A stretch of 64,000 nt of DNA, from positions 2,520 through 66,519 of the forward strand of contig CALDDN010000003.1 in the NCBI GenBank assembly GCA_937936615.1, read 5' to 3'. The stretch's first letter is position 1, and the number at the start of each line of letters is the position of its first letter. Both the position numbers and the translations under genes were made by a program. Of the stretch, positions 2,729 to 61,973 are shown in pieces. This stretch comes from an uncultured Bacteroidia bacterium. Its GTDB lineage: Bacteria > Bacteroidota > Bacteroidia > J057 > CALDDN01. A model generated the notes under the pieces. The model did not search any database. It was not told the DNA's origin and saw nothing but the letters and a program-made list of their open reading frames with translations.

Positions 2729-3889
2729 GTGCACATTGCCGTCAATACGCGCCTGCTGTTGTCGGGCCGGCTCGAGGGCATCGGTCGGGTGGCCCATGAG
2801 CTGTTGCAGCGGCTGCCCGGTCAGCTGCCGCAAGCCCGTTTCAGCTTTCTGTTCGACCGGCCCCACGACCGGCAGTTTATCTACAGTCCGGCGATTTCGG
2901 CGGTGGAGCTTTTCCCGCCGGCGCGGCATCCGTTTCTGTATCTGGCGTGGTTCGAGGGCCGCGTGGCGCAGTGGCTCAACCGCCAGCGGCCCGACGTGTT
3001 TTTCTCGCCCGATGCCTACTTGAGCCTGCGGGCCAGGGTGCCGCAGGTGCCGCTTTTCCACGATCTGGCTTTCGAGCACTTTCCGCACGACATCGACCGG
3101 CTGCACCGCTGGCACTACCGGACGTTTTTCCCGCGCTACGCCCACCAGGCTACGCGCATCCTGACCGTTTCGGAAGCCACGCGCCAGGACCTGATTTCGA
3201 CCTACGGAACACCGCCCGATCGGATCGTTGTAGCTCCCAATGCCTGTTCGAGTGTTTTCGGTCCCAGCTCATCCGAGGTGCAGGCTGCCTGCCGGGCGCG
3301 TTTCAGCGGGGGCCAGCCTTTTTTTCTGTCGGTTGGGGCCATCCAGCCGCGCAAGAATCTGACGCTGCTGCTGCGGGCCTTCGACCGCTTCAAGAGCGAG
3401 ACGGGCCACCCGGCCCGCCTGCTGCTGGTGGGCCGCAAGGCGTGGCGGTATGGGGAGGTGGAGCGGATCTATGCCGGCCTGACGCACCGGGCCGACGTGG
3501 AGTTCACGGGCTTTGTGAGCGATGCCGAGCTGAACGTGCTGTATGGCAGTTCGCTGGCACTGTGCTACGTGTCGCGTTACGAGGGCTTCGGGCTGCCGCT
3601 GCTCGAGGCGATGGAAGCCGAGACGGCGGTAGTGGCCTCCGACATTGCGGCCCTGCGTGAGGTGGGGGGCGATGCCGCCCGATACGTGGGCGTGGACGAT
3701 GTGTCGGGTCTGGCGTCGGTGCTGGCTCAGCTGGCGGTCGATGCGGGTCTGCGGGCCTCGCTCATCGAGCGGGGTCGGCAGCAGCGGCAGCGGTTCAGCT
3801 GGGAGGGGTCGGCGGCGGTGGTGGCGCGGGTGCTGGCCGAGGCGGCCGCGCGAGTTCGCAGGCGGGGCCAGCCTGGGCCGTCCGTTTGA
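2729..3889 (+). CDS. glycosyltransferase, GT4/GT1-type (GT-B fold)
   Basis: GTG start. N-terminus MHIAVNTRLLLSGRLEGIGRVAHELLQRL is typical of GT4 enzymes. C-terminal FVSDAELNVLYGSSLALCYVSRYEGFGLPLLEAMEAETAVVAS matches the E-x7-E glycosyl-transferase group 1 signature. Confidence 0.85.
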   Translation: MHIAVNTRLLLSGRLEGIGRVAHELLQRLPGQLPQARFSFLFDRPHDRQFIYSPAISAVELFPPARHPFLYLAWFEGRVAQWLNRQRPDVFFSPDAYLSLRARVPQVPLFHDLAFEHFPHDIDRLHRWHYRTFFPRYAHQATRILTVSEATRQDLISTYGTPPDRIVVAPNACSSVFGPSSSEVQAACRARFSGGQPFFLSVGAIQPRKNLTLLLRAFDRFKSETGHPARLLLVGRKAWRYGEVERIYAGLTHRADVEFTGFVSDAELNVLYGSSLALCYVSRYEGFGLPLLEAMEAETAVVASDIAALREVGGDAARYVGVDDVSGLASVLAQLAVDAGLRASLIERGRQQRQRFSWEGSAAVVARVLAEAAARVRRRGQPGPSV

Positions 3890-3996
3890 ATGCGGGAGCC
3901 GCATTGGGGCGTGTAAAAAGTTGATGCGGGCAGCCGCCGTGCTCACAGGCAGCAATTCAATCCGCCTGGGTGTATTATATATGCATTACCTTAATG

Positions 3997-4052
3997 TTAA
4001 GCAGAAAATTCAAAGCCTGCAATCCGACGGCTGCATGGCCTTTTCTGCTTAA
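3997..4052. repeat. 12-bp perfect inverted repeat (TTAAGCAGAAAA / TTTTCTGCTTAA) with 32-nt spacer, in the 5' leader of the giant CUB gene
   Basis: Arms at 3997-4008 and 4041-4052 are exact reverse complements. The spacer contains a second imperfect pair, GCCTGCA / TGCATGGC. There is no downstream T-run, so it is not a canonical terminator. Confidence 0.6.
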
Positions 4053-4098
4053 CTTGCCGTACAAGCCTATCGTTCGACACTTCATTGCTTTTTCATCT

Positions 4099-42509: not shown

Positions 42510-43874
42510 ATGCCATCCTCCTACATGAGTGAAACCAGTCTGGCCACACGCGCGGCACTCCTGAAAGAAGTCGAAATTTTCTCGCAATCCAATGACAAGG
42601 TCGTCGAACGCATCGCACGGGGACTTTTCGAACTCAAATTGCAGGCCGGTGTGGGCATCATTCGTAAGGGTGAGATGGGTAACTGCATGTACATCATCGC
42701 CGAGGGACGTGTCCGGGTGCATGACGGTGAGGTTACCTTCGTTGAGCTGGGCCATTCCGACATTTTCGGCGAGTTCTCGCTGCTCGATTCCGAACCGCGA
42801 TCGGCTTCCGTAACGACAATCGTTCCCAGTGTCCTCTACCGCCTCGATCAGGAGACGTTCTACGAGATTCTGGACGAGCACCCTGAAATTACGCGCAACA
42901 CCATCCGGCTGATTGTCAACCGCCTGCGCAAGCTCAACGACAAGAACACCGCCGCTATGCGTAAGCGGCAGGAGGAACTGACCAGACTGGTCGAAGAGCG
43001 TACCCGCGATCTGCAAATCAGAAACGAACAGCTCAACAGCGCCTTTGACGAGATCAAGGCTCAAAATGAGCACCTGGCGCGGGCTTACAAGGAAATAGAA
43101 GAGAAAAACGCTGAGATTACGGCCAGCATCCGCTATGCCCGCCGTATCCAGTCCGCCCTGCTGCCTACGCAGGAATACGTCCGACGCTTCTTTCCCGATT
43201 CTTTCACGCTCTACCGTCCTAAGGATATCGTGAGCGGCGATTTTTACTGGTTCGCCGAACGCGGGGGTAAACTCTTTTTTGCAGCGGTGGACTGCACGGG
43301 GCACGGTGTGCCGGGGGCCTTCATGTCGGTACTGGGCAATTCGTTGCTCAACCAGCTGGTCAAGGAACAGGGCTTGACCCAGCCAGCCGAAATCCTCAAT
43401 CAACTGCATGCCCGCGTTGTCGATACCCTCAAGCAGATTGACCCCAACTCCGTAACGAGCGACGGCATGGACCTGGCACTGTGTGTTTACGATCCGCAGC
43501 CCCGAACGATGCTCTACGCGGGGGCACAGCGTCCACTTGTTCACTTTCGCGGTAAGGAGATGACCGAAATACCGGGCGACAAGTTCTCGATCGGGGGAAC
43601 GGGCTTTGCGCGGATGCGGGAGCCTTACAGCCAGCACCGCATTTACATGCAGCCCGGTGACACGGTCTACATCTTTTCGGACGGTTATGCCGATCAGTTT
43701 GGGGGCGAGCGGGGCCGCAAAATGCAGACCTCGCGCTTCGTTTCCCTCCTGGCCGAGCTTGTCGAAGAAGATATGCAGACCCAGTACGAACGACTCAATC
43801 TCTTTTTTGACGAATGGCGCGGCGATCTGGAACAACTGGATGATGTGCTGGTCTTCGGGCTGCGCTTTCATTGA
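42510..43874 (+). CDS. cyclic-nucleotide-binding domain + coiled coil + PP2C/SpoIIE-type phosphatase
   Basis: cNMP-binding segment: GEMGNCMYIIAEGRVRV...FGEFSLLDSEPRSASVTT. The C-terminal SGDFYWF...AAVDCTGHGVPGAFMS...DGMD..L...FSDGYADQFGG is a SpoIIE/PP2C domain. Confidence 0.85.
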   Translation: MPSSYMSETSLATRAALLKEVEIFSQSNDKVVERIARGLFELKLQAGVGIIRKGEMGNCMYIIAEGRVRVHDGEVTFVELGHSDIFGEFSLLDSEPRSASVTTIVPSVLYRLDQETFYEILDEHPEITRNTIRLIVNRLRKLNDKNTAAMRKRQEELTRLVEERTRDLQIRNEQLNSAFDEIKAQNEHLARAYKEIEEKNAEITASIRYARRIQSALLPTQEYVRRFFPDSFTLYRPKDIVSGDFYWFAERGGKLFFAAVDCTGHGVPGAFMSVLGNSLLNQLVKEQGLTQPAEILNQLHARVVDTLKQIDPNSVTSDGMDLALCVYDPQPRTMLYAGAQRPLVHFRGKEMTEIPGDKFSIGGTGFARMREPYSQHRIYMQPGDTVYIFSDGYADQFGGERGRKMQTSRFVSLLAELVEEDMQTQYERLNLFFDEWRGDLEQLDDVLVFGLRFH

Positions 43875-48769: not shown

Positions 48770-51700
48770 ATGTCAGCACCCGGACGGACGCCCGCCACCG
48801 CCCCACCTGCCCCGCCCCGCATCGATTGGCCACACGGGGCACCCGGTGCCTGGCCCCAGTTGCTGCTCCTGGGCTTGGCTTTGGTCTTGGTGGGTATTGG
48901 GGGCTGGCTTCTGATTCAGAATCCGATGGCGCAACAGCCGCTGAACCAGGTGCGGCAGCAGCTTCACGCTACGCAGCAGCTTCAGAACCATTTCGTCGAA
49001 CTTCGCAAGCAGCTGCTCAATCTGGAGCAGGCCCAGCTCGAGGCCATCGGCGACGCGCTATACCGTCAAACCATCCGCTGCTTCACGGCCATTGACCAGC
49101 CTGCCGACAGCGTAGCTGCCTGGGCACAGCTCGTAGCCGGTTCGAAAGAAAATCAGAGCGACTGGAGTCAAACCCTCAACCGGTTCTATACCAGCAGCCA
49201 GCGTTACCTGCAGTTAATCTATCAGGTCGCCACTCAGGACACGGTCCAGACACTGGTTTTTAAAAAAGCGGCGTTCAGGCCTGAAACGCCGCCACCTACT
49301 CTCGAAGCCGCCCGGCTGGCCACCTACGAGTCGCTGATTCAACTGGACAGCTTGGTGGCTGCGGCACATTCGCAACTGGCGCGACAGGCCAGTTCCCCTC
49401 CGAAAGGCGATCCCATACGCTGGGCTTACCTCGTTTTGGGGCTTGCCACCCTGCTAGTCGTCCTGCTCTTGATTTTACCCGCCCGCCAGCACCGCCAGGC
49501 TGTTGCCCGGCTCATGAGGCTGCTTACCCGGTTGCGGGTGGCTGCCCGTCTTGACAACACCGCCGCCACTTCCGTTTCGCTCGACCGGGGGCAGCTGGCG
49601 TTTCAGAAGGCCATAGAGGTGATCGAAGAAGACCTGAGCAGCCTGCAGAACCACCTGGCCGCGCTTTCGCTGGGGCAACCCCTCAAAGTCTCACTGGGTT
49701 TGAACCAGCGCCGACCGGAGTTCGACGGCCTTCTGGGCCAGCTGAGCCATCGGCTGCAAGCTGCTGGCGATACCCTGATCGAATGGCGGGCCTTGCTCGA
49801 ATGTGTCGACGCCCTGCAGCTGCCGCCCGAGGCATCGACTGCCGACTTGGGCCATGCCTGGTGCAGGGCTTTGCTGGGCTATCTCAACGCGACAGAAGCA
49901 TTGTTCATCACGCGTCAGGGCTCCGGCCCGCGCGTTTCGATGGAGCTAGTGGCCCGAGCGGGCGATGTTTTTTTTCGCTCTGACCTCTGTCAGCATCCGC
50001 AGGCCAAGGCTTGGATCGAAAATCAGCTGCGCCGAACAGATTTCCACCATGAAGCGGCTTCCAGCCTTGCGGCACCTCTTTTTGTGTCGTCTGCCATTCA
50101 GCTCAAAGAACTGAATGTGATTGCCTGGCCTCTCGAAACCCAACCCGATCGCGTATCCCTGCTGCTGCTGCTGATTCCGGACAGCCACCTGGAACGCTAC
50201 CGGACATCCAACCGCATGCTCCTGCAGTTGATGCGTGCTCAAGTGGCTCTGAGAACATCTGCCAGCCAGCTCGATGAGCTACTTCCACGCTTGCAAGCCA
50301 GTGAGCGTCGCCTGACCGAGGAGCAGGACCGTGCCTGTCGACTCGAACACAACGTAACGCGCCTCACGAAGCTGGTCGACGAACTGCAAGGCCAGCAGGC
50401 ATTGATCGAGGGGTTCTGGAACGCGGCCATGCCCGCCTTGGTGCTGGATGCCGATCATGTAATTGTGTCGGCCAATGAGCTGGCCTGCCGCCTGCTGGGC
50501 TCTCGTTCTGAACTTTTGTATGGCCGACCACTGGCTGAGCTGGCCGAGCTGTCTGCCGGTTTGAACTGGCCCGCTGCGGGCAGCCCCATCGACCGGTGGT
50601 CGGGCGAGGTCTACTGGAAAAAATCCGAATCCGAACGCCTGCTCATCGGCTTGCACTGGGTACCTGAACCTGCCGCCGCCGGACGCCCCCCCAGCTATCG
50701 GGTCTTTTTAACCGACCGCTCCGATGTGGAATACCTGGCCGGTGAACTGCGGCTTCTCATGGAGAAGCTCTCGGACAAGGAGCAGGAGGCCTACAACCTG
50801 CAACTGCTGCTCGAGTCGGCACAAAGTAACGTCAGCCATCTGCGCAACGCTCTCGACAACCTGACCCAGGCCCTCAATGACTCGGCTATCGTAGCCGAAA
50901 CCGACACCTTGGGCCGGATTATTTCCGTCAACGAGCAGTTCTTGCAATCCTGCCGTTACAGTCGTGAGGAGATCATAGGTCAGAATCACCGCATCCTCAA
51001 ATCGGGCCATCAGCCCGACGATCTGTACGAGCAGCTCTGGCGAACCATTACCAGCGGCCAGACCTGGAAAGGGGAATTGAAAAACCGCCGCAAAAACGGC
51101 AGTTACTATTGGATATCGACCACCATTACGCCCATTCGCGAAGAAGACGGTCAGTTCAAACGATTTATCGCGGTAAGCTTCGACATTACGCGGCGCAAGC
51201 TGCAGGAAGACCAGCTCATGGCGGCTATCGAGCTTTCGCACACGCAGGAGCAGGAGATGATGCAGAACGTCGAGGACCTTCGCGAGCTTCAGGCTATGCT
51301 GCGTCAGACCCAGCTCGACCTGCGCGGTCGTACCGAGGCCATCCGCAATGCCGCTCTGGTCAGCGAAACCGATCTGCGTGGAAACATCCAGCATGCCAAC
51401 GAGGCTTTCCTTCAGGCTGCCGGTTACGGCATGGCCGATTTGGCCAACAAAAACCACCGGATTCTCAAATCGGGCGTGCACGAAGCGGCTTTCTATCACC
51501 GCATGTGGAAAACGATATCCAGCGGCGAGGTCTGGCGCGACCTGATCTGCAACAAGTCGGCCGATGGTCGGCTCTACTGGGTTAATCTGTGCATTACGCC
51601 GGTACTCAATTTCGATAATCAGCCTATAAAATACATTGGCATCGGATTCGAGGTTACGCACCTCGTGAAACTGGAGACCGAGCTTGGCCAGCTCAGGGAT

Positions 51701-54388
51701 GAGCAGACCCGGTTGCTCGAACAGCTCGACAAACAGGAACGCAAGCTGCTGGCAGCCACTTACGAGCTGACCGGACGTACCCAAGCCCTGCAGGCGGCAG
51801 CGGTGGTGGCCGAAATCGATCCCAACGGCACCATTACCCACGCCAACGACCGCCTCCTGATTCTGGCCCGCGAATCCTACGACGATCTCTGTGGCAAGCC
51901 TTTCGCCCATTACTTTCACAGCCCCGAGCTGAATCTGGAAGAACCCGCTTTCTGGCAGCAGCTGGCTGAACAGGGCCGCTGGACAGGTGAGCTGATTCTG
52001 ACGGTCTACGAATCGACCCCTCTGTGGGTGCTGGTGCACCTGCACGCCGTACCCGGCGAGTTGGGCCAGCTGCGTTACTATCTCTGCCTTATCAACGACA
52101 TTACCCTGCTCAAAAAGCAGGAAGCCGAGCTGGCCCGTCTTCAAATGGCGGTAAATCAGCTGCGTCAGGAACTGGAGGCCGAGCGGCAGCACCAGCCCGA
52201 GTTACCTGACGTGTTTCCGGCAGCCCTTTTTCGTCGTTCGCTTTCCGATACCCAGCCTTTTATCTGGGTAGGGGCGCACATTCACGCCCTGACGGGGCGT
52301 GATGCCGCGCAGTGGCTCAGCCCTGCCTGCCCTTGGCCGGCTCTGCTGCATCCCGACGACCGTTCGCATGTCCTGCTGGCACTGGAAGCTGCCCGCCTCG
52401 AACGGCGCGGGTATCTCGTAACCTTTCGCTGGCTCGATGCCCGGGGGCAGTGGCGTTTCATTCGCGAGGAAGGGAAGCCCGGCTACGACGATCAGGGCCG
52501 TCTGACGCATTTCGATGGCCTGTGGATTGACATCAGCCGTGAAATCCAAGCTCTGAACGAACTGCGCCAGCAGCTGGAAGCCACCGAACGCCAGGCTCAT
52601 GATCGAATCCGGGCATCGGAAGAGCTGGAAAAAGAGCTGCAACTGCTCGAAGCCCGCGCCCGAGCTTTGCAGCTGGCAGCCCTGGTTATCGAGACGGACA
52701 CGGCGGGACGGGTGCTGCAAATCAATGACGAGGCCCAAACCCGCCTCGGCCGGTCTCGAACCGAGCTGACCAATCAGCTGCCAGCTTCGTGGCTGGCACC
52801 CGAACACAGCCCCGCTTTCGTTGCCGATTTGATCCGGCAGGCCGCTTCGGGCAGCATCTGGCGGGGGCAGCTCAAGCTGCAATCACGTAGCCATGGCGGC
52901 GGCTTCTGGTGTCGGGCCGTCGTGGCCGCCATTCAGCCGCTCAGGGGCGAAGGCGTCCGCCTGCTCTGGATGCTGCACGACAGCCAGCGTGAACTGGAGC
53001 AGGAGCGGGCTTTGCGTCAGCTCTATCAGATTTCTCAGGAACGCGAGCGTGAGTTCGGTACCGCCGCGCTGGAAATGGAGAAAATCCAGCAGCTCATTCT
53101 TGAGAACCAGCTCCTGCTCTCGAGCCGTGTCGAAGCCCTCAACCATTCGGCTCTGGTATCTGAAACCGATACACAGGGTCGCATTACTTACGTCAACGAT
53201 CAGGCCCTGCGTGTCTGGGGCTATTCCCGCGAGGAAGCCCTAGGCCGCCGCCACAATCTTATCTCGTCCGATCACCACAGCCGCTCATTTTTTGCGCAGC
53301 TCTGGTCGACCATCACCGCTGGCCACGTCTGGCGCGGCCAAATTTTGAACCGCAACAAGCAGGGCGACTATTTCTGGGTTCAGCTGACCATTACGCCCGT
53401 ACTCGACGGTCAAGCCGTGCCTACCCGCTATATCGGTGTGGCTTTCGATGTTACGGAGCGGGTTCGCCAGAGCACCAAGGCCAGCCGCCTGCCCGAGGCC
53501 AGCCGCTCGGGCACTCTCGGAGCCCGTATGCATCAGGTGCTGCGCCACATCGGGGGAGCCGACCCCGAGGCACCCCGTCCTGCATTCGACCAGCTGCCCT
53601 TCCCCGCGGCCGAACTCGACGAACGCTGGCGGTTCCGGCGGGCGAACGCAGCCTTTCAGGAGCGGCTCGGCTGGCAGGCTGCCGAGCTGGCAGGGGAGTC
53701 TATCGTACTGATTCTGCAGGCCGAGCAGAGTTCGGGGGCCAGCCTCGACCAGCTGACCCAGGTGCTCACCGAGCATCGTTTTGCCTATGCCGAATTACAG
53801 TACATCGACCGCCAGCGTGCGGGCAAGCGGTTTGCTACGGCCTTCGCTCTGCAGCAGCAGCCCGAAGGGCCGGCCATCTGGATGCTGCTCTTCGATCTGG
53901 AAAAGCAGCTGCAGGTAGGCAGCCGGAGCGAGAGCGGTCCGAGCATCAGCGAGCGCATGATCGAACGGCTGACGGCTCATACGCTGTATTTCGAAATGGA
54001 TCTGGACGGCAATTTTGCTTTTGTTCATGAACGGATGCTTGCCCTGCTGGGACGGAGCAGCGACCAGGTGCTGGGTAAACCTTTTCCCGTGATTTCCAGC
54101 CGTCGGACGCCGGTAGCTTTATTCGAGGGGCTGATCCATACCCTCAATGAAGGCAAGACCTGGTATGGCTCGCTCGAGTGGGTCGATGCCCGCGGGGTGC
54201 TTATTCGCGTGATTGGCGCGGTTGCGCCTATTCTGGGAGCCGGTCGGGTAGTCGAACGCATTGTGGGTCTCTTCGTTGAGTATGACCGCTTCGATATCCG
54301 CGCTCTGGAATTGGACGAATCTGAAACTCAGGCTCCCGCTCAGCTTCAGACCGAGCGTCGGCCGGCCAAAGAACGCGACCAGGCGTAA
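48770..54388 (+). CDS. membrane-anchored multi-PAS sensor protein (2 TM, HAMP-like, GAF-like, about 9 PAS/PAC) without recognisable output domain
   Basis: ATG at 48770 (MSAPGRTPATAPP...). TM1 is WPQLLLLGLALVLVGIGGWLLIQ and TM2 is WAYLVLGLATLLVVLLLILPA. Near-canonical PAS modules include AIVAETDTLGRIISVNEQFLQSCRYSREEIIGQNHRILKSG...WKGELKNRRKNGSYYWISTTITPI. I could find no H-box, HATPase, GGDEF/EAL, REC or MCP hairpin motifs. Confidence 0.85.
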   Translation: MSAPGRTPATAPPAPPRIDWPHGAPGAWPQLLLLGLALVLVGIGGWLLIQNPMAQQPLNQVRQQLHATQQLQNHFVELRKQLLNLEQAQLEAIGDALYRQTIRCFTAIDQPADSVAAWAQLVAGSKENQSDWSQTLNRFYTSSQRYLQLIYQVATQDTVQTLVFKKAAFRPETPPPTLEAARLATYESLIQLDSLVAAAHSQLARQASSPPKGDPIRWAYLVLGLATLLVVLLLILPARQHRQAVARLMRLLTRLRVAARLDNTAATSVSLDRGQLAFQKAIEVIEEDLSSLQNHLAALSLGQPLKVSLGLNQRRPEFDGLLGQLSHRLQAAGDTLIEWRALLECVDALQLPPEASTADLGHAWCRALLGYLNATEALFITRQGSGPRVSMELVARAGDVFFRSDLCQHPQAKAWIENQLRRTDFHHEAASSLAAPLFVSSAIQLKELNVIAWPLETQPDRVSLLLLLIPDSHLERYRTSNRMLLQLMRAQVALRTSASQLDELLPRLQASERRLTEEQDRACRLEHNVTRLTKLVDELQGQQALIEGFWNAAMPALVLDADHVIVSANELACRLLGSRSELLYGRPLAELAELSAGLNWPAAGSPIDRWSGEVYWKKSESERLLIGLHWVPEPAAAGRPPSYRVFLTDRSDVEYLAGELRLLMEKLSDKEQEAYNLQLLLESAQSNVSHLRNALDNLTQALNDSAIVAETDTLGRIISVNEQFLQSCRYSREEIIGQNHRILKSGHQPDDLYEQLWRTITSGQTWKGELKNRRKNGSYYWISTTITPIREEDGQFKRFIAVSFDITRRKLQEDQLMAAIELSHTQEQEMMQNVEDLRELQAMLRQTQLDLRGRTEAIRNAALVSETDLRGNIQHANEAFLQAAGYGMADLANKNHRILKSGVHEAAFYHRMWKTISSGEVWRDLICNKSADGRLYWVNLCITPVLNFDNQPIKYIGIGFEVTHLVKLETELGQLRDEQTRLLEQLDKQERKLLAATYELTGRTQALQAAAVVAEIDPNGTITHANDRLLILARESYDDLCGKPFAHYFHSPELNLEEPAFWQQLAEQGRWTGELILTVYESTPLWVLVHLHAVPGELGQLRYYLCLINDITLLKKQEAELARLQMAVNQLRQELEAERQHQPELPDVFPAALFRRSLSDTQPFIWVGAHIHALTGRDAAQWLSPACPWPALLHPDDRSHVLLALEAARLERRGYLVTFRWLDARGQWRFIREEGKPGYDDQGRLTHFDGLWIDISREIQALNELRQQLEATERQAHDRIRASEELEKELQLLEARARALQLAALVIETDTAGRVLQINDEAQTRLGRSRTELTNQLPASWLAPEHSPAFVADLIRQAASGSIWRGQLKLQSRSHGGGFWCRAVVAAIQPLRGEGVRLLWMLHDSQRELEQERALRQLYQISQEREREFGTAALEMEKIQQLILENQLLLSSRVEALNHSALVSETDTQGRITYVNDQALRVWGYSREEALGRRHNLISSDHHSRSFFAQLWSTITAGHVWRGQILNRNKQGDYFWVQLTITPVLDGQAVPTRYIGVAFDVTERVRQSTKASRLPEASRSGTLGARMHQVLRHIGGADPEAPRPAFDQLPFPAAELDERWRFRRANAAFQERLGWQAAELAGESIVLILQAEQSSGASLDQLTQVLTEHRFAYAELQYIDRQRAGKRFATAFALQQQPEGPAIWMLLFDLEKQLQVGSRSESGPSISERMIERLTAHTLYFEMDLDGNFAFVHERMLALLGRSSDQVLGKPFPVISSRRTPVALFEGLIHTLNEGKTWYGSLEWVDARGVLIRVIGAVAPILGAGRVVERIVGLFVEYDRFDIRALELDESETQAPAQLQTERRPAKERDQA
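50420..54300 (+). repeat. array of about 9 PAS/PAC modules separated by coiled-coil linkers (protein-level tandem repeat)
   Basis: Three close copies begin AIVAETDTLGRI, ALVSETDLRGNI and ALVSETDTQGRI. Six diverged copies begin LVLDADHVIV, AVVAEIDPNGTI, FPAALFRRSL, ALVIETDTAGRV, FPAAELDERW and HTLYFEMDLDGN. Confidence 0.7.
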
Positions 54389-54469
54389 CCCCAAGGCTTC
54401 CATCGCGTATCTTAGCACGGGCATTGTCCCCTGTTGATACCCTTTCCCTGCTGGAGTCCCGCACGCATC

Positions 54470-55315
54470 ATGTTCAATCTGCCCAGTGAATATGACATCG
54501 AAATCGAACTCGATGACTTGAACAAGCTAACCGATGCCGTATTGACCAAGTACGGCTACGACTTTGGGAACTATGCCATGTCCTCGTTCAAGCGGCGGAT
54601 CATCATGGTGCTCAAAAAGCATGGTATCAAGACCGTGGAATTGCTTATTCAAAAGATATTGCATGATTCGCAATTTTTCGAGCAATTCATTCTGGATATA
54701 ACGGTTAATACGACCGAGCTATTTCGCGATCCCAGTTTTTTTCGGTATCTGCGCGAGAAGATCATTCCGGTGCTCAATACCCGACCGGAATTCAATATCT
54801 GGCACGCTGCCTGTTCTTCGGGCGAGGAAGTAATTTCGATGTCGATTCTGCTGCACGAAGAAGGGCTGCTGTCGCGGGCCAAAGTCTACGCAACCGACAT
54901 TAACCACGCGGTGCTCAAGCGGGCTGCCGAAGCCCGTTACCCTCTGCGCAATCTTGAGCTTTTCAAGCAGAACTACGAGCTGACCATGCCCAAAGGCAAG
55001 CTCGAAGACTACTACATCGTCAAAGACAATGAAATTTACTTTGATCCGGCCCTGGTATCGCATGTCAAATTCAAGCATCATGACCTGGCGGTCGATCATC
55101 ATTTTTTCAAATTCGACTTTATATTCTGCCGCAATGTCCTGATTTATTTCAATCAGGATTTGCAGAATCGTGTTTTTGAACTGCTGCACAACAGCTTGTT
55201 TCTGGGCGGTTTCCTGGCATTGGGTGCCAAGGAATCGATGGTTTGGTGTCGCATTTCAGACAAATTCGAAGTTGTCAATGAGATCGAAAAAGTCTATAAA
55301 AAGATCAAATTGTGA
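54470..55315 (+). CDS. cheR: CheR-type protein-glutamate O-methyltransferase (stand-alone)
   Basis: N-terminal helical domain (YGYDFGNYAMSSFKRRI). SAM-binding IWHAACSSGEEVISMSILL, ATDINHAVLKRAAEARYP, FDFIFCRNVLIYFNQDLQNRV. The ATG at 54470 is preferred over the track start at 54434. GC is markedly low. Confidence 0.85.
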   Translation: MFNLPSEYDIEIELDDLNKLTDAVLTKYGYDFGNYAMSSFKRRIIMVLKKHGIKTVELLIQKILHDSQFFEQFILDITVNTTELFRDPSFFRYLREKIIPVLNTRPEFNIWHAACSSGEEVISMSILLHEEGLLSRAKVYATDINHAVLKRAAEARYPLRNLELFKQNYELTMPKGKLEDYYIVKDNEIYFDPALVSHVKFKHHDLAVDHHFFKFDFIFCRNVLIYFNQDLQNRVFELLHNSLFLGGFLALGAKESMVWCRISDKFEVVNEIEKVYKKIKL

Positions 55316-55364
55316 TCAGTTTATTTGTAAATAATCTAAAAGTCAATACCTGAAACCCGCGTAG

Positions 55365-55946
55365 ATGAGCGGTTCATTTAACAAGGAGCAATACCACGTA
55401 TTGGTTATCGGGGGGTCTGCGGGCAGCTTTCCGTCGGTCTCGCGCATCCTCGAGCACCTGCCCAATGACTACCGCCTGCCGGTGGTCATGTGCCTGCACC
55501 GCCTGCGCGACAAGCGCGAGGGCTTCAAAGAAGCCCTCGAAATCAAGTCGAAAATGCCCGTTTGTGAACCCAACGATAAAGACCTCATCCTGCCCGCCCA
55601 CGTTTACATTGCACCGGCCAACTACCACCTGCTCATCGAAACCCCTCATTTTTTTGCCTTAGCTACCACCGAACTGGTACAGTACTCCCGTCCCTCAATC
55701 GATGTCCTGTTTGAGTCTGCGGCCGATGCGCTGAAATCGAACGTGTTGGCTGTACTGCTCTCGGGTGCCAACCGCGACGGGGCCTTGGGTATGAAACGCA
55801 TCCACGTCAAAGGCGGTTACACGGTTGTTCAGGACCCTGCTACGTGCAGCATGAACACCATGCCCCAAGCCGCTCTCGACCTAACCCCTGTGGATCGAAT
55901 TCTCGATCTGGATCGGATTATCGAATTTCTCATCGACTTGCACTAA
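55365..55946 (+). CDS. cheB: CheB-type methylesterase catalytic domain only (no receiver domain)
   Basis: At 193 aa it is catalytic domain only. VLVIGGSAGSFPSV carries the Ser, VVMCLHRL the His region, VLLSGANRDGALGM the Asp, and GGYTVVQDPATC...MPQAAL follows. Confidence 0.8.
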   Translation: MSGSFNKEQYHVLVIGGSAGSFPSVSRILEHLPNDYRLPVVMCLHRLRDKREGFKEALEIKSKMPVCEPNDKDLILPAHVYIAPANYHLLIETPHFFALATTELVQYSRPSIDVLFESAADALKSNVLAVLLSGANRDGALGMKRIHVKGGYTVVQDPATCSMNTMPQAALDLTPVDRILDLDRIIEFLIDLH

Positions 55947-55956
55947 ACCTTCTCCC

Positions 55957-56550
55957 GTGTTTACAGGTATTGTAGAGGCCATGGCCACGGTTGTGGACCT
56001 CAGGCCCGAGGGCAGCAACCTGCGCCTGACTCTCGAAACCCCTCTGGCCGCCGACCTGCGTGTTGATCAGAGTGTGGCCCACAACGGCGTGTGCCTTACG
56101 GTCGAACGGGCCGAAGCCAGCCGCTATGAAGTGGTGGCCGTTGCCGAAACCCTGAGCAAAACCAATCTGGCCGACCTGCGGGTCGGTGATGCCGTCAACC
56201 TGGAACGCTGCCTGCGGGCCGATGCCCGCCTCGACGGGCATATGGTGCAGGGGCATGTCGACCGCACGCTGCACCTGCTGGCTGTGGTCGAACTGGACGG
56301 CAGCTGGCTGCTGGATATCGAACTGCCGGCTGCAGATCGTGCTCTGGTAGTGTCCAAAGGTTCGATTGCCCTCAACGGCGTCAGCCTGACGGTAGCCGAT
56401 CTGGCCGAGGCCCAGTTTAGCGTGGCCATCATTCCCTACACCTGGACACATACTAACTTGAGCCGTCTTGATCCCGGGCATCGGCTCAACGTCGAGTACG
56501 ACCTGCTGGGCAAGTACATTGTGCGCTGGCTGGAGCTTCGCGCCGGTTGA
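55957..56550 (+). CDS. ribE: riboflavin synthase (alpha chain)
   Basis: The GTG start gives MFTGIVEAMATVVDL.... It has the duplicated lumazine-binding repeat (GDAVNLERCL...; GVSLTVADL...). Confidence 0.9.
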   Translation: MFTGIVEAMATVVDLRPEGSNLRLTLETPLAADLRVDQSVAHNGVCLTVERAEASRYEVVAVAETLSKTNLADLRVGDAVNLERCLRADARLDGHMVQGHVDRTLHLLAVVELDGSWLLDIELPAADRALVVSKGSIALNGVSLTVADLAEAQFSVAIIPYTWTHTNLSRLDPGHRLNVEYDLLGKYIVRWLELRAG

Positions 56551-56609
56551 TGGCCGCCGGGCGTGGGATATTTCCTTATTTTTGGGCAGCCCTTATTATG
56601 CCCCTGTGT

Positions 56610-59600
56610 ATGCGATACCTGGTACTTGTTGTTTGGATGTGGCTGGCGGCAGCCATGCTTGCTCAGGCTCAACTCCCATTTGCCATAGGCGGTCCGACCG
56701 CCGACGTGGCCGCGGATGTGGTCCGTGATGCCTCCAACCACATCTACGTGCTCGTTAACTTTACCGGTAACCAGCCTGTCGATTTCGATCCGACAGGCAA
56801 TACCTTCAACCTCACGGGAACCGATGCCCAATCGGATGTGGCGTTGGCCAAGTACACCGCCGACGGTGGTTTCGTGTGGGCTGTCGCCCTGCAGGGGGCG
56901 CAGGAGGATGTGGGCTATTCGCTGGCCCTCAGCCCCGATGGCAGTGGCATCTACGTCGTTGGCTCCTTTTCCGGAACGATCGATTTCAACCCTGGGCCTG
57001 GCGTCGAGCAGCGTACCTCGACCGGTCAGCTCGATGCCTTCCTGGCCCGCTTTCGCACGGCAGATGGTTCGTTGGTCTGGGCCATCACCTTCGGCGGCAC
57101 GGGTAACGATTACGCCTTTGATGCAGTGGCCGATGCCCAGGACCGCGTTTTTGTATCCGGAGTCTACCAAAGTGTGGTCGATTTTGATCCCTCGGCGGGT
57201 ACTCGTCTGGTTACTACGGCAGGTCTTTCGGACAATTACCTGGCCTGCTACGAGGGCAGCAACGGAGCTTTCGTCTGGGTCAACCCCATCGGGGGCATTC
57301 TGGACGATTATGCCGGAACGGGTGGCACAGGCGTTGTCCTCGACAACCAAGGAGGTGTTTACATAACGGGCCTATTTGCCGGCTCTGCCGATTTCAATCC
57401 TGATCCCAACGTCGATTTTCCTCTGGCAGCCATCGGAGGCCTCGACCATTTCGTAGCCCGCTACGAGACCACATCGGGAGCATTTTTCTGGGCTTCAGGC
57501 TTTGGGGGCCTCGACAATGAATTTGCCGGCATTGGCGGCATTGCCTGGACTTCCAACGGGCAGGTTGCGATTGCGGGCGGCTTCCGAGGAACGGGTGAGT
57601 CCTATCCCACGCCCGGCCCGTTCATCGATTCCAAAGGCGAACTGGATGTCCTCCTGGCAGGTTTTGACGCCGGAACAGGCGATGCGCTCTGGTCTGTTGG
57701 CTTTGGCGGTCCGGAGAACGATGCAGCCAGCCGCCTCATTGCTGACGGTGCCAACGAATACTATGTTACCGGTGCGTTCAGTGGCACAGCCGATTTTGAT
57801 CCCCTGTCAGCAAGCCAGTTCCTGATCGAATCGCGGGGAACGGGCGGGGCTACCGATGTTTTTGTAGGCAAGTATGGCCCCATCGGCAATTTCATCTGGG
57901 CGGTTTCTGCCGGGCCGGTACTGACGGGCGCAGCCAGCCATACCGCCGGTCTGGGGCTGGCCTGGAACGGCAGCCTGAACCGCCTTTACGCAGCCGGTCG
58001 TTTTCACGGAACGGCGGACTTCAATCCTGGACCTCCGGTAACCAATCTGGTTTCTGCCGGCGAGGCCGATGCTTTTGTGTGGAGCCTCGATGGCAACGGA
58101 CAGTTCAGCCAGACAATTGCTTGCCCTGCACCGGTTTCGCTGACCTCCTCAACCATTACGGAAAACAGCGCGGTGCTTGTCTGGCCTGCCGTGCCGCAGG
58201 CCGGCAGCTACGAAGTAAGCTTCGGACCGCTTGCCGACCCCAGCCCGCAGGTTACGACTGGTTTTACAGGGACGCAGTTTTCGGCCAGCAACTTGCAGCC
58301 CAATACCCTGTACCGGATCGCCGTGCGCAGCGAGTGCGGAACCGACCGCTCGGCTGTCATCGATTTTGCATTTGTAACCAGCGACCTGCCTCCCCAGCCT
58401 TGCCCGCTGCCCCTTCCGCCCACGGTCAGCGACCTGAATCCGACCCGGGCACGGCTCAACTGGACGGCCTTTCCCAACGTCATCAGCTACGAAGTGAGCT
58501 ATCGCGAGGTGGGAGCACCTAATTTTATCGTCGTTCCCAATCTGCCTACGGCCACACTTCAGCTCGACAACCTGAGTCCGGCAACAAGGTATGAGGTACG
58601 CCTGCGCAACGCATGCATCGGTTTTGGCTTCACACCTTTTTCCGATGTCATCACCTTTACCACCCCCGGCCTGCTCGATCAATGCCTGAACGCCGTCCGC
58701 CCGCCCGTTGTGGTTGAAACCGGTACTACAAGCGTGCGCCTGAACTGGACGGCAGCTCCCGGGGCCAATTTCTACGAACTGCAGTACCGCCGCGTGGGCG
58801 ATGCGTTCTGGGTCGGTCTGCCCGGCACCACGGCTCTGCAAGCTTTGGTCGCCGACCTGATCCCCAATACGGAATACGAATTCCGCCTGCGGGTTAACTG
58901 TTCGGGTACGCCCTCTCCCTTTACGTCGGAGGTACGGGCGGTTACCGGAACGGTACCTTCGCCCTCGTGTGCCATTCCGACCGATGTTCGCATCGACGAG
59001 ATCAGCGAAAGCCGTGCCGTGGTACGGTGGCAGCCGGCAGCCGGTGCCTTGCGCTACGAGGTAAGCTACCGCACCACGCGGGGTTTCATCACCGTATCGG
59101 TACCCAATATATCGAGTACTGAACTGGAGCTGACCAACCTGCTGACTGCCACCGAATACGGCGTGCGGGTGCGGGCCCTATGCGCCAGCGGCAGTTCCAA
59201 CTTCAGTCAGGAGCTGTTCTTCCGTACCGCCCAGCCACCGATCGTCTGCTTTACGCCGGCTGTTTCGGTGGGGGCGGTCGGCGAAACAGCTGCGACTGTC
59301 TTCGGAGTCAACGTCCTCGATGAGTACGAAGTAGAATTTAAGGCCGAGGGTGCGACCGACTTTACGTCCGTGATCGCCAGCGTGGTACCTTTTCAGCTGG
59401 TGAATCTGCTTCCGGGTACCCGCTACGAGCTGCGCATCCGCAATCGCTGCCCCAACAACACCTTTTCGCCTTATTCGGCTTCGGTCGTCTTTACAACCGA
59501 TCGCACCCCCGATCCTTGTCCTACGCCGACCCGTCTGACGGTCGAAGTACTCGGACCGACCCTGGCACGGGTATCGTGGCCGGAATCGATCGCGTTCTAC

Positions 59601-61973
59601 AAAATTGAATACCGGGTCGAAGGCAGCGAACGCTGGATTTCAGGCTTTTTCACTGAAAGTGGCCCCATCCTGCTGCGAAATCTGGAACCGGCCACCCCCT
59701 ACGAGGTGCGTCTCGTGCCCATCTGCGAGGGCATCGAGGGCCGTCCCTCGCCGACACAGCCCTTCCTTACGGGAGCGGCTGTGCCTTGCCCGGCCCCGAC
59801 AGCCCGCCTGCTGACGGTCGACCAGACTACGGCTACGCTCAGTTGGGTACCCGATGCGGCCCTCTATGAAATTGGCCTGCGTGTGGCTGGTCAGGATTTA
59901 TTCAGTGAGGATTTTACGCTGGATAACCCCTTGATGCTCAAAGGCCTGCAAGCCGGAACGGCCTATGAATTCCGGGTGCGCCGCATCTGCGTCGATGGGC
60001 TGCCCTCGCCCTGGTCGAATGTTGTGCGGTTTGAAACCCAGGCCCGACCAGTGAACTGTACGACACCCCTTGTAACGTTGGTGTCCAATGCAGGAGGTGC
60101 AGTAACGCTGAGCTGGCCGGCCGTGCCCGATGCGATCAGCTACGAAGTTTTCTTCGGAGTGGTCGGCAGCTCGCGTGTTGAAACCCGCGTTTCGCTTACA
60201 CCTTTCATTGTATTGGATGGCCTGGCTCCAGGTACGGAATACCGGTATCAGGTGCGCAGCCGCTGCGGTACCGAGCTGTGGTCGCTCTTCACCGAAACGA
60301 TGACCTTTCGCACGGGCGACCTCGGTTGTCCGCGACCGGTGCTCACGCTGGCCGATGCCGGAACCGACTTTCTGCTCTTCGATGTCGAGCCGGAGTCTGC
60401 GTCTGGATACGAGATTGAATACCGGCCTCAGAATGGAACGGACTTCGTTCGATTGGCGGCCCCAGCAGGCAATTCGCTGCTGCTGTCCAATCTGGCAGCA
60501 GGCTTTACTTACGAAGTTCGGGCACGAAGCCGCTGCGCCGGTGGCAGGCTATCGGACCAGTCGGAACCGGTTCTGGCGACTACCCAGAACCTGCGTGAAT
60601 GTCCGACCCCGACTCTGAGGCTGGCCAACCTGACACCGGTTTCGGCAGTGGTGGTCTGGAATCCGTCCGACGCAGGCTTTGAAGTGGGGATTCGTTCAAC
60701 TGGTCAGGTCGAGTTCGTAACGACATTTGAATCGGGCCAGCGCAACACCTTTGTTTTCAGTGGGCTGCAGCCCAACACTGCCTACGAAGTTCGAGTACGT
60801 AATTTCTGTGGCGATCGCTTTGGGGGCTTCTCCAACGTGCTGACGTTCCGCACGCCGGAGCAGCCCACTACCGACGATTGCCCCGTTCCAAACCTGCAGC
60901 TGGTGGGTCTCGAGCGCAACGCTGCAACCTTTAACTGGAGTCCGCCTGCCTCGGCCTTTGAAATCGGTTTCCGTCTGGCCGACAGCCCTACATGGAGCAC
61001 TTTTGCGGTGATGGGCACCCAGCCCTTCCGCCTGCCCAACCTGACTGCCGGCACCCGCTATGAGTTCCGCGTACGCAACCTTTGTACAGGCAATCGCTAC
61101 TCGCCCTATTCGAATGCAGTCAGCTTCACCACCTTGGGCGACGGCCCGCCCCCGCCGGCCTGCAACGCACCGGTTCCCCGTATCGACGAAGTCGGTTTCA
61201 CGACGGCCCGCCTTTCGTGGCCGCCCGTTTCGGGGGCTGTCGAATACGAAATCGAACGCACCGGCCCCGATGGCGTGCAGACTGCATTCAGCATCCAGCC
61301 CGGCATAGTCTGGAATAACCTGGCCCCCGGCAGCCGCTATACGGCTCGGGTGCGTACGCGCTGTCAGTCGGGGCTTTCGCCTTTTTCGCTGCAGCTGGTT
61401 TTCGATACGCCGCGGCAGCCGGTTGGCGATGCCTGCTTCACACCGACGGGTCTCGACTTCGAGGCTATAACCGACCGCTCGGCGCGGGTAGTCTGGTCGC
61501 CCGTTCCGGGTGCTCTGCGTTATCAGGTGCTCTGGCGGCAGGCTGGTCAGCCCAACACGCTGCGCAGCATCGAAACCTCCAGTCCTTCGGTTACACTGGA
61601 GTTGCTTATCCCGAATTTTCCCTATGAAGTACAGGTTCGAGCTGTCTGTACGGGCGGTCGGGCAAGTGATTACACGGCCTTCCGTCGCTTTACAACCCGA
61701 CTGAACCGCGATGCGGCTCCCACGGCTTCCGTTTCAGCTTTCGAAATCTACCCCAATCCGACGACAGGTCTGCTGACCCTTCGCGGTCTGTCCGCTGCAG
61801 CTCCGAACACCTTGCGCCTGCTTGATCTGAGCGGTCGCCTGCTGTGGGAGACGGCAACCGCGGCTGAAGCAGTCGATCTTGATTTCGGCTGGGTCGGGCA
61901 GGGACTTTACCTGCTCGAATGCCAGGCCGATGGGCAGCGGCATGTGCAACGCTTGGTTATTCTGCCTCGCTGA
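56610..61973 (+). CDS. giant T9SS cargo: 7-bladed SBBP-type beta-propeller + 13 Cys-bracketed FN3 modules + type-A CTD
   Basis: The preferred start at 56610 (MRYLVLVVWMWLAAAMLAQAQ) gives a signal peptide; ATGs at 56550 and 56598 are alternatives. CTD FEIYPNPTTGLLTLRGL...GLYLLECQADG...RLVILPR (about 61731-61970). Confidence 0.85.
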   Translation: MRYLVLVVWMWLAAAMLAQAQLPFAIGGPTADVAADVVRDASNHIYVLVNFTGNQPVDFDPTGNTFNLTGTDAQSDVALAKYTADGGFVWAVALQGAQEDVGYSLALSPDGSGIYVVGSFSGTIDFNPGPGVEQRTSTGQLDAFLARFRTADGSLVWAITFGGTGNDYAFDAVADAQDRVFVSGVYQSVVDFDPSAGTRLVTTAGLSDNYLACYEGSNGAFVWVNPIGGILDDYAGTGGTGVVLDNQGGVYITGLFAGSADFNPDPNVDFPLAAIGGLDHFVARYETTSGAFFWASGFGGLDNEFAGIGGIAWTSNGQVAIAGGFRGTGESYPTPGPFIDSKGELDVLLAGFDAGTGDALWSVGFGGPENDAASRLIADGANEYYVTGAFSGTADFDPLSASQFLIESRGTGGATDVFVGKYGPIGNFIWAVSAGPVLTGAASHTAGLGLAWNGSLNRLYAAGRFHGTADFNPGPPVTNLVSAGEADAFVWSLDGNGQFSQTIACPAPVSLTSSTITENSAVLVWPAVPQAGSYEVSFGPLADPSPQVTTGFTGTQFSASNLQPNTLYRIAVRSECGTDRSAVIDFAFVTSDLPPQPCPLPLPPTVSDLNPTRARLNWTAFPNVISYEVSYREVGAPNFIVVPNLPTATLQLDNLSPATRYEVRLRNACIGFGFTPFSDVITFTTPGLLDQCLNAVRPPVVVETGTTSVRLNWTAAPGANFYELQYRRVGDAFWVGLPGTTALQALVADLIPNTEYEFRLRVNCSGTPSPFTSEVRAVTGTVPSPSCAIPTDVRIDEISESRAVVRWQPAAGALRYEVSYRTTRGFITVSVPNISSTELELTNLLTATEYGVRVRALCASGSSNFSQELFFRTAQPPIVCFTPAVSVGAVGETAATVFGVNVLDEYEVEFKAEGATDFTSVIASVVPFQLVNLLPGTRYELRIRNRCPNNTFSPYSASVVFTTDRTPDPCPTPTRLTVEVLGPTLARVSWPESIAFYKIEYRVEGSERWISGFFTESGPILLRNLEPATPYEVRLVPICEGIEGRPSPTQPFLTGAAVPCPAPTARLLTVDQTTATLSWVPDAALYEIGLRVAGQDLFSEDFTLDNPLMLKGLQAGTAYEFRVRRICVDGLPSPWSNVVRFETQARPVNCTTPLVTLVSNAGGAVTLSWPAVPDAISYEVFFGVVGSSRVETRVSLTPFIVLDGLAPGTEYRYQVRSRCGTELWSLFTETMTFRTGDLGCPRPVLTLADAGTDFLLFDVEPESASGYEIEYRPQNGTDFVRLAAPAGNSLLLSNLAAGFTYEVRARSRCAGGRLSDQSEPVLATTQNLRECPTPTLRLANLTPVSAVVVWNPSDAGFEVGIRSTGQVEFVTTFESGQRNTFVFSGLQPNTAYEVRVRNFCGDRFGGFSNVLTFRTPEQPTTDDCPVPNLQLVGLERNAATFNWSPPASAFEIGFRLADSPTWSTFAVMGTQPFRLPNLTAGTRYEFRVRNLCTGNRYSPYSNAVSFTTLGDGPPPPACNAPVPRIDEVGFTTARLSWPPVSGAVEYEIERTGPDGVQTAFSIQPGIVWNNLAPGSRYTARVRTRCQSGLSPFSLQLVFDTPRQPVGDACFTPTGLDFEAITDRSARVVWSPVPGALRYQVLWRQAGQPNTLRSIETSSPSVTLELLIPNFPYEVQVRAVCTGGRASDYTAFRRFTTRLNRDAAPTASVSAFEIYPNPTTGLLTLRGLSAAAPNTLRLLDLSGRLLWETATAAEAVDLDFGWVGQGLYLLECQADGQRHVQRLVILPR
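56690..58100 (+). repeat. seven SBBP-like beta-propeller blades
   Basis: The motifs D...(I/V)Y(V/I).G.F.G(T/S).DF(D/N)P alternate with .D.F(L/V)A(K/R)(Y/F)...G...W(A/S)...GG...D. Examples: IYVVGSFSGTIDFNPGPG / LDAFLARFRTADGSLVWAITFGGTGND. I counted 7 units. Confidence 0.65.
58122..61700 (+). repeat. 13 tandem Cys-bracketed FN3-like modules (about 275 nt period)
   Basis: Each module starts with C(P/x)(x)P and contains (L/V).W......(Y/F)E(V/I).(Y/F)R, then L.P.T.Y(E/R)(V/F)R(V/I)R..C. The first is CPAPVSLTSSTITENSAVLVWPAVPQAGSYEVSF...YRIAVRSEC. The last is CFTPTGLDFEAITDRSARVVW...YEVQVRAVC. Confidence 0.75.

Follow-up and report, generated by a model that had tools for sequence, protein, structure and literature searches.

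The subject of this analysis is a run of three genes in an uncultured Bacteroidia bacterium (GTDB lineage J057; CALDDN01), located on contig CALDDN010000003.1 of assembly GCA_937936615.1. The window is the full 64-kb stretch of that contig, and all the statements below on genes absent from the window cover these 64 kb only. The first gene (48770..54388, + strand, from the ATG at 48770 to the stop at 54388) encodes a membrane sensor of 1872 aa with an array of PAS domains. It is followed after 81 nt by cheR (54470..55315, +), encoding a protein-glutamate O-methyltransferase homologue of 281 aa, and, after a further 49 nt, by cheB (55365..55946, +), whose 193-aa product consists of the methylesterase/deamidase catalytic domain alone, without a receiver (REC) domain. 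This layout, with the three genes co-directional, was confirmed as given in the preliminary description of the locus, which was made from the sequence alone. The start of the sensor gene agrees with the N-terminus of its orthologue (P0126) at locus L002, from one of the closest genomes. A terminator scan gave hits at the level of shuffled sequence, none of them between the multi-PAS gene, cheR and cheB, and an Rfam search of the 47-57 kb interval returned no match.

CheR and CheB are the textbook adaptation enzymes of chemotaxis, and many non-flagellated Bacteroidota carry orphan cheR/cheB genes. To our knowledge, no substrate of these enzymes other than a methyl-accepting chemotaxis protein (MCP) has been firmly established.

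Hydropathy, Pfam and self-search confirmed that the 1872-aa protein has two transmembrane (TM) helices, an outside segment of about 170 aa and approximately nine PAS domains. TM helix 1 (48854..48919, +, about residues 29-50) and TM helix 2 (49424..49489, +, about residues 219-240), both with a Kyte-Doolittle maximum of 2.7, enclose an all-helical outside (periplasmic) segment of 168 aa (48920..49423, +, about residues 51-218). The AlphaFold2 (AF2) model of residues 1-310, built from a two-sequence alignment, has a predicted local distance difference test score (pLDDT) of 62 and comprises TM1 (a helix at residues 28-50), four long outside helices modelled at pLDDT 55-87, TM2 and two cytoplasmic helices. 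The outside segment is probably a four-helix bundle according to this model. The modelled topology of the sensor head would be NarQ/Tar-like; the top Foldseek matches in the PDB are NarQ sensor-TM-HAMP fragments and chemoreceptor ligand-binding domains, none of them significant (E>0.2).

The cytoplasmic segment that follows (49490..50434, +, residues 241-555) appears to consist of helices in the HAMP position, a divergent alpha/beta part in the GAF position and a long helix. It had been labelled HAMP-like and GAF-like at first, and these names are kept here as putative, positional labels, since the orthologues carry Pfam HAMP and GAF_2 at the position of residues 241-555. In the window protein, no profile hidden Markov model (HMM) for HAMP or GAF matches this segment, the hhalign comparison of the GAF-position segment with the cluster GAF profile is not significant (probability <1%), and the AF2 model of residues 236-560, a helix pair followed by a helix-strand pattern, has a pLDDT of 45, too low for a fold search.

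The remainder of the protein is the array of about nine PAS domains with helical linkers (50435..54289, +, residues 556-1840). Iterative self-search recovered seven strong copies (residues 698-816, 855-972, 1004-1121, 1298-1413, 1455-1569, 1614-1684+ and 1733-1840), and two weaker copies, at about 556-685 and 1150-1260, are matched by Pfam PAS_3/PAS_9. Because this array fills residues 556-1840 and leaves a tail of 32 residues, the protein has no room for a hidden output domain; the multi-PAS orthologues likewise stop right past their last PAS domain. Pfam and NCBIfam match PAS-type models only, and searching five sub-segments separately at E<=10 brought up no match to HisKA, HATPase_c, GGDEF, EAL, HD-GYP, Response_reg, SpoIIE or MCPsignal, the last being the MCP signalling hairpin (PF00015). 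The earlier statement that this protein holds no kinase, cyclase, MCP or receiver domain thus stands. PAS2 (50861-51217) and PAS3 (51332-51685) are light-oxygen-voltage (LOV)-like, with NHRILKSG in place of the flavin-adduct Cys motif GxNCRFLQ. A LOV photoreceptor is not indicated, the adduct Cys being replaced and the scores against the YtvA and LOV-histidine kinase NCBIfam models being far under their cut-offs.

The sensor evolves unevenly. Over its full length it is 59% identical to the L002 orthologue, with PAS2 (residues 698-816) as the best-conserved part (90%) and the outside segment as the fastest-evolving one (33%). The orthologues of L010, L011 and L017 are 37% identical and collinear over about 890 aa. 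An exhaustive HMMER search of 1.84 billion representative proteins found one homologue of the N-terminal 560 aa. A word-indexed search gave no match for the same region, and for the full protein returned the protein itself and four generic PAS proteins.

The window CheR matches CheR_N (PF03705, E 1e-8) and the S-adenosylmethionine (SAM)-binding CheR domain (PF01739, E 2e-38). The window CheB matches CheB_methylest (PF01339, E 3e-50) only, and no Response_reg match was found in its 193 aa with Pfam or NCBIfam. The best 120 CheB homologues are all 165-226 aa long with PF01339 alone, and stand-alone homologues of about 190-200 aa exist by the thousands in Bacteroidota.

The genomic context of this CheB family was analysed by searching the CheB alignment against GTDB genomes, with each species represented by a single one. 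The 80 loci closest in CheB, all from Bacteroidota and mostly from Cytophagales, were retained, and their flanks were annotated by seed and profile searches, with representatives checked with Pfam. cheR lies immediately upstream of cheB in 78 of these 80 loci. Informative loci are the 68 in which 6.5 kb or more of sequence follows cheB, and there a SpoIIE/PP2C sensor gene is found downstream in 63, a DUF6272 gene in 61, a SiaC (DUF1987, PF09345) gene in 61 and all three in 60. The canonical order is cheR, cheB, a small GAF protein with two TM helices, a dCache-HAMP-GAF-PAS-PAS-PP2C sensor, DUF6272, SiaC and a fused ATP-binding cassette (ABC) ATPase/permease; Pfam on representative clusters confirmed the dCache-HAMP-GAF-PAS-PAS-SpoIIE architecture as well as DUF6272 and SiaC. 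Cultured organisms with the full cluster include Thermonema lapsum, Cesiribacter andamanensis, Nafulsella turpanensis, Marivirga aurantiaca, Pseudochryseolinea flava and Catalinimonas spp.

The DUF6272 proteins carry the N-box and G2-box motifs of the GHKL family and are predicted to be SiaB-like GHKL Ser/Thr kinases. Their profile matches chain A of PDB entry 6kko (E 4e-23), and as another chain of this entry is a DUF1987 protein, 6kko is apparently a complex of the SiaB-SiaC type. The relatives' SiaC-family protein matches PF09345 (E 6e-39); the one encoded at L088 aligns to SiaC at E 1e-15 and retains an NTSS motif aligned with the phosphorylated threonine of SiaC, reported as Thr68 (PMC8457831; bioRxiv 10.1101/674879). 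With PP2C, DUF6272 and SiaC genes downstream of the pair, the relatives encode a complete SiaA/SiaB/SiaC-type switch genomically attached to cheR-cheB. In the canonical Cytophagales cluster, a fused ABC ATPase-permease of about 1030 aa stands immediately past the SiaC-like gene (L005, 16269-19472, and 54 other loci). This ABC protein, which stands where SiaD does in the Sia system, is a possible target of the switch; no GGDEF (SiaD-like) gene was found in the Bacteroidota clusters.

Output-less sensors are part of this family of loci. A shorter type (GAF with or without one or two PAS domains, 590-810 aa) lies upstream of cheR in 11 Cytophagales loci and, with the multi-PAS type included, an upstream output-less sensor is present in 15 of the 68 loci. 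The output-less and the PP2C sensors are alike in topology, a pair of TM helices flanking some 170 aa (only one TM helix was detected in L089), and both hold paralogous GAF/PAS modules.

The clade of the window itself was delimited as the loci whose CheB is 58-88% identical to the window CheB. In L007 and L088, an output-less HAMP-GAF sensor with six to nine PAS domains is followed by cheR, cheB, a GAF-PAS-PP2C gene and two DUF6272-SiaC pairs. The same order as far as the GAF-PAS-PP2C gene occurs in L010, L011, L017 and L090, with the SiaB/SiaC pairs not in reach. L089 has the multi-PAS gene, cheR, cheB and then the two DUF6272-SiaC pairs, while L003, L008, L009 and L092 have cheR, cheB and the two pairs. 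In the window and L002, the multi-PAS gene, cheR and cheB are followed by ribE, and L091, a short contig, shows a partial cheR, cheB and ribE. A small ORF of 143-191 aa trails the second DUF6272-SiaC pair in several of these loci (L088 15984-16415, L089 12852-13427, L003 13114-13554 and L092 12980-13420); it belongs to no significant family, and its weak EssA-like/Rifin-like matches are probably compositional.

The output-less multi-PAS sensor lies immediately upstream of cheR in nine loci (the window, L002, L007, L010, L011, L017, L088, L089 and L090). This linkage is kept among relatives whose PAS protein is 37-59% identical and whose genomic GC ranges over 30-60%; in L010, L011 and L017 there is an overlap of 33-36 nt between the sensor gene and cheR. 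The check put forward in the preliminary description, conservation of the PAS-cheR-cheB neighbourhood, thus came out positive, gene order being the same in eight relatives, but the conserved unit turned out to be larger than the trio.

A Pfam scan of about 45 window ORFs found no MCP, CheA, CheW, histidine kinase or receiver domain, and the relatives whose neighbourhoods were annotated with Pfam showed no MCP, CheA or CheW there either, in line with the chemotaxis-free context first described. As the linkage of the trio is conserved and these partners are missing from the window and the relatives' neighbourhoods, a chemotaxis-independent use of CheR/CheB is plausible. The alternative is that cheR and cheB encode ordinary adaptation enzymes for MCP-CheA-CheW arrays encoded elsewhere in the genome, the PAS gene being an incidental neighbour. 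A CheB without REC domain has a precedent in the F3 class of chemotaxis systems of Campylobacterota (PMC9239204), and some Bacteroidetes do encode chemoreceptors (PMC7390727). Against this, the gene order is kept in at least nine loci of very different GC, with genes overlapping in three, no MCPsignal, CheW or CheA was found in the window or in the relatives' neighbourhoods annotated with Pfam, and the family is tied to PP2C/SiaB/SiaC genes instead. We consider the chemotactic explanation quite improbable.

The comparison with MCP-CheR-CheB arrays, including the F3 and Wsp types, shows both common and distinct traits. The window CheR has the same CheR_N and SAM domains, CheB has the Ser/His/Asp fold, and the two enzymes are paired with a transmembrane receptor that has no output domain and whose helical outside domain is followed by a HAMP-position segment. 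However, the window locus lacks the MCP signalling hairpin, CheW, CheA and the MCP methylation consensus, the cytoplasmic part of its sensor is a GAF/PAS array, and the downstream pathway of the relatives would work by Ser/Thr phosphorylation in a partner switch and not by a His-Asp phosphorelay.

The closer parallel is the SiaABCD system of Pseudomonas aeruginosa, composed of the PP2C phosphatase SiaA, the kinase SiaB, the DUF1987 protein SiaC and the diguanylate cyclase SiaD. In the relatives' clusters the genes come in the same order as in the Sia system, with the phosphatase (a membrane PP2C sensor that contains HAMP) first, then the SiaB-like kinase and then the SiaC-family protein. They differ in that the Bacteroidota sensors add dCache, GAF and PAS domains, and in that a fused ABC ATPase-permease follows SiaC where no SiaD-like GGDEF gene is found. 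The published Sia system has neither cheR nor cheB (PMC8457831; bioRxiv 10.1101/674879).

More generally, in partner switches of the RsbU/RsbT type, a small STAS-like switch protein is the common target of a sensor-controlled PP2C phosphatase and an opposing GHKL Ser/Thr kinase. The relatives' cluster follows this logic of PP2C versus kinase, with the difference that its switch protein is DUF1987 and not STAS, and that the cluster contains no sigma factor. We know of no methylation layer of the CheR/CheB kind in Rsb systems.

Taken as a whole, the gene content of the relatives suggests that a pathway pairing CheR/CheB with a phosphatase/kinase partner switch is common and undescribed in Bacteroidota; the open-access literature searched yielded no description of CheR/CheB with a PP2C partner switch, nor of DUF6272, and nothing relevant on CheB-CheR kinases. 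We propose that the window trio is the co-sensor together with the CheR/CheB covalent-modification arm of such a Sia-type pathway, and not of a CheA-CheW-MCP array, a reading that we give about an even chance of being right. A further part of the proposal is held more tentatively, and in our judgement is somewhat more apt to fail than to hold: glutamate methylation by CheR/CheB would form an adaptation layer on a Ser/Thr partner switch, with GAF/PAS membrane sensors, the nine-PAS protein among them, as acceptors in place of MCPs. If so, this would be a second, non-chemotaxis architecture around CheR/CheB, present in at least 60 of the GTDB species-representative genomes sampled.

In the proposed mechanism, the multi-PAS sensor would resemble an MCP in having no enzymatic output, and its nine PAS domains would be able to gather cytoplasmic signals. 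The sensor would hand on its state by hetero-oligomerising with a PP2C, either a paralogous membrane sensor or a different SiaA-type phosphatase, which would in turn fix the phosphorylation state of the SiaC-like switch protein. Methylation by CheR and demethylation/deamidation by a constitutively active REC-less CheB would reset the gain, most plausibly by modifying Glu/Gln residues on the helical linkers of the sensors. In the lineage of the window (window, L002 and L091), where the switch genes are not adjacent, they would have moved away from cheB and ribE would have taken their place; since they no longer adjoin cheB in this lineage, the switch partners must act in trans. Three elements of this scheme are inferred: that the sensor couples physically to a PP2C, what accepts the methyl groups, and that SiaB/SiaC homologues exist elsewhere in the genome.

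Several observations weigh against this proposal, and the first of them concern gene location. Profile HMMs made from 69-154 cluster members found no DUF6272, SiaC, cluster-type GAF or GAF-PAS-PP2C gene in the window, so that the window itself, in contrast to the Sia system, shows no SiaB or SiaC homologue. In the three closest genomes (window, L091 and L002) the gene after cheB is ribE and not a switch gene, so that the case for membership of the Sia pathway comes from relatives further away, whose CheB is 58-70% identical. In addition, the cheR-cheB pair of L034 and L049, and the cheB of L027 and L043, which is there without cheR, lie amid housekeeping and type IX secretion system (T9SS) genes, and neither a sensor nor a Sia-like gene is found within 10 kb of them. 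These four loci indicate that the components of the cluster can be dispersed.

A candidate partner does exist in the window. The gene at 42510..43874 (+) encodes a protein of 454 aa that joins a cyclic nucleotide monophosphate (cNMP)-binding domain to a SiaA-type PP2C phosphatase domain (Pfam cNMP_binding and SpoIIE). It scores 309 bits against the PP2C profile made from the cheR-cheB clusters, and its PP2C domain shares 41-47% identity with those of the clusters, which equals the divergence between cluster clades. Its best PDB match, and hence its closest solved structure, is the SiaA-type PP2C entry 6k4e_A (E 9e-39), a further likeness to the Sia system. We regard it, speculatively, as an unlinked candidate for the output partner. 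It lies 5 kb upstream of the sensor, with gatC, a tetratricopeptide repeat (TPR) gene, aroQ and xerD in between, and this separation counts on the negative side. So does the possibility that its likeness to the cluster PP2Cs, seen in a comparison that includes no outgroup, may reflect a common PP2C type of Bacteroidota.

The remaining points on the negative side come from the candidate methyl-acceptor sites. The MCP methylation consensus, taken as the strict regular expression [ASTG][ASTG]xx[EQ][EQ]xx[ASTG][ASTG], does not occur above shuffle expectation in the multi-PAS protein, in its orthologues or in any cluster family. The GAF-to-PAS linker of the PP2C sensors is nearly invariant and Glu-rich (ELQEQQEVLRQNAEEMqATQEELkRTN), with EE pairs seven residues apart and one column of E/Q interchange. 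An HMM of this linker matches the upstream output-less sensors and the inter-PAS linkers of the multi-PAS orthologues (AQEEELRQNAEEMEAQQEEMKRTQIELTGQINALNNA, with two to four strong copies each), and it finds no match in four unrelated multi-PAS control proteins. The window protein and its L002 orthologue have one degenerate copy each, which in the window is the PAS2-to-PAS3 linker (51242..51352, +, residues 825-861, TQEQEMMQNVEDLRELQAMLRQTQLDLRGRTEAIRNA). This copy reads QE, ED and AM where the EE pairs would be, and it scores 18 bits (independent E-value 6e-7) versus 60-75 bits for the copies in the orthologues.

The use of these Glu-rich heptad linkers as proof of methyl-acceptance was rejected, given that the carriers are all paralogues, that such linkers are common and that the window copy is degenerate. 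Heptad linkers with EE pairs, of the AEEALRESEER type, are indeed common in PAS-PAC arrays ahead of the PAS domains. With carriers that are all paralogues and a linker type so common before PAS, we treat the linkers as a lead and not as evidence. The degenerate linker would argue, if anything, for weak or no methyl-acceptance by the window sensor.

This bears directly on what CheR and CheB modify. Within the same Sia-type pathway, their substrate could be the PP2C sensor, the small GAF protein, the SiaB-like or the SiaC-like protein, leaving the multi-PAS protein as an accessory co-sensor. Such an arrangement would account for L003, L008, L009 and L092, where cheR-cheB is accompanied by two DUF6272-SiaC pairs and no sensor lies within 10 kb, and for the 53 of the 68 loci, mostly in Cytophagales, that have no upstream output-less sensor. 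Conserved E-[E/Q] pairs are found in the PP2C sensor (alignment columns 965/966, E33/Q30) and near the C-terminus of SiaC, where an E/Q column (E61/Q9) is followed by an invariant E. Columns with E/Q interchange, however, are common in any protein family. Furthermore, the window, L002, L010, L011 and L017 have sensors and no nearby SiaB/SiaC, from which it follows that no single partner is universally linked to the pair. We judge this alternative a serious candidate, on the unlikely side.

A different origin for the trio was put forward in the preliminary description, namely that it is a split version of the CheB-CheR-PAS-histidine kinase (HK) hybrids, forming a self-contained, chemotaxis-independent methylation module with the multi-PAS protein as its substrate or scaffold and no further output. 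The fusion family has the architecture CheB_methylest-CheR_N-CheR-PAS_10-PAS-HisKA_2-HATPase_c. Like the trio, it ties CheB and CheR domains to PAS outside chemotaxis, whereas the window genes are separate and in the opposite order (PAS, CheR, CheB), with no PAS_10, HisKA_2 or HATPase_c. Locus L004 (Catalinimonas alkaloidigena) carries at 3620-7066 a fusion of this kind, CheB-CheR-PAS_10-PAS_4-HisKA_2-HATPase_c, in which seven NEEL heptads in a row separate CheR from PAS. This fusion lies 2 kb upstream of a stand-alone cheR-cheB-Sia-like cluster, and a single-domain receiver gene then follows.

The split-hybrid origin agrees with the preservation of the trio as a unit and with the sub-clade of the window, where no other signalling genes are adjacent. 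It also agrees with the NEEL heptads of L004, Glu-rich repeats that resemble the sensor linkers and match the linker HMM at 26 bits. The window CheR and CheB, however, share only 27% and 30% identity with their counterparts in the L004 fusion, which sets the stand-alone pair apart as its own lineage rather than a recent split, and the L004 genome contains both forms. Nor does the module appear to be self-contained: in 60 of the 68 related loci the pair is accompanied by all three components of the switch (PP2C sensor, SiaB-like kinase, SiaC-like protein), and this nearly constant association means that the module has an output pathway. A sensor with two modifying enzymes and no effector would have no path to a cellular response, the methylation consensus was not found and the linker motif of the window is degenerate. 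We therefore find both the split and the self-contained module improbable.

The state of the locus itself was assessed from CheR and CheB conservation. In the 84-member CheR family alignment, 80 columns reach an identity of 95% or more; the window CheR agrees with 76 of them and shows conservative changes in the remaining four. In CheB, S18, H45 and D138 align with the catalytic triad and are invariant across 20 family members. Between the window and L002, CheR is 92.5% identical at the amino acid level, the top value of the syntenic block, followed by dehydroquinase (83%), CheB (82%), XerD (69%), RibE (68%) and an fn3 protein (60%). CheR and CheB are under strong purifying selection with intact catalytic residues, and since both are so constrained the locus is not a relic. 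A decaying remnant, in which the PAS gene, cheR and cheB were left non-functional by the loss of the switch genes downstream of cheB, would fit the missing downstream module and the degenerate linker motif. It is opposed by the intact ORFs of 5.6 kb, 0.85 kb and 0.58 kb in the window and L002, by the presence of cheB and a partial cheR on the L091 contig, and by the residue conservation of both enzymes, and we consider it extremely improbable.

The surroundings of the trio offer some additional observations. The ribE gene begins 10 nt past the cheB stop and its own stop overlaps the start of the next gene, which encodes a protein of 1808 aa with 11 fn3 domains and a Por_Secre_tail (both genes within 55957-61973, +). 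This order is shared with L002 and L091, and cheB, ribE and the gene for the fn3/T9SS cargo may be co-transcribed. The GC content is 45.7% in cheR, 55% in cheB and about 60% in the neighbours. Horizontal transfer of cheR-cheB, suggested by this dip, was rejected: GC at third codon positions (GC3) drops only slightly (0.61 in cheR versus 0.70 in the neighbours) and shows no dip in L002, so the lower GC of cheR/cheB is mostly a matter of amino acid composition. Among the other window ORFs, about 40 in the Pfam scan, are genes for housekeeping and T9SS cargo proteins. One T9SS-tailed protein of 2072 aa (3970-10188, +) contains 12 CUB domains (Pfam E 1e-214), an unusual array in a bacterium, as CUB is mainly a metazoan extracellular domain.

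For the organism of the window the result is the more modest one, since the locus provides the sensor and modification half of the system only. For the family, a CheR/CheB lineage tied to a Sia-type switch and to GAF/PAS sensors would turn the puzzle of the orphan cheR/cheB genes into a testable model, that of a methylation-based memory acting on a Ser/Thr switch, and cultured organisms carrying the cluster exist in which this model can be tested.

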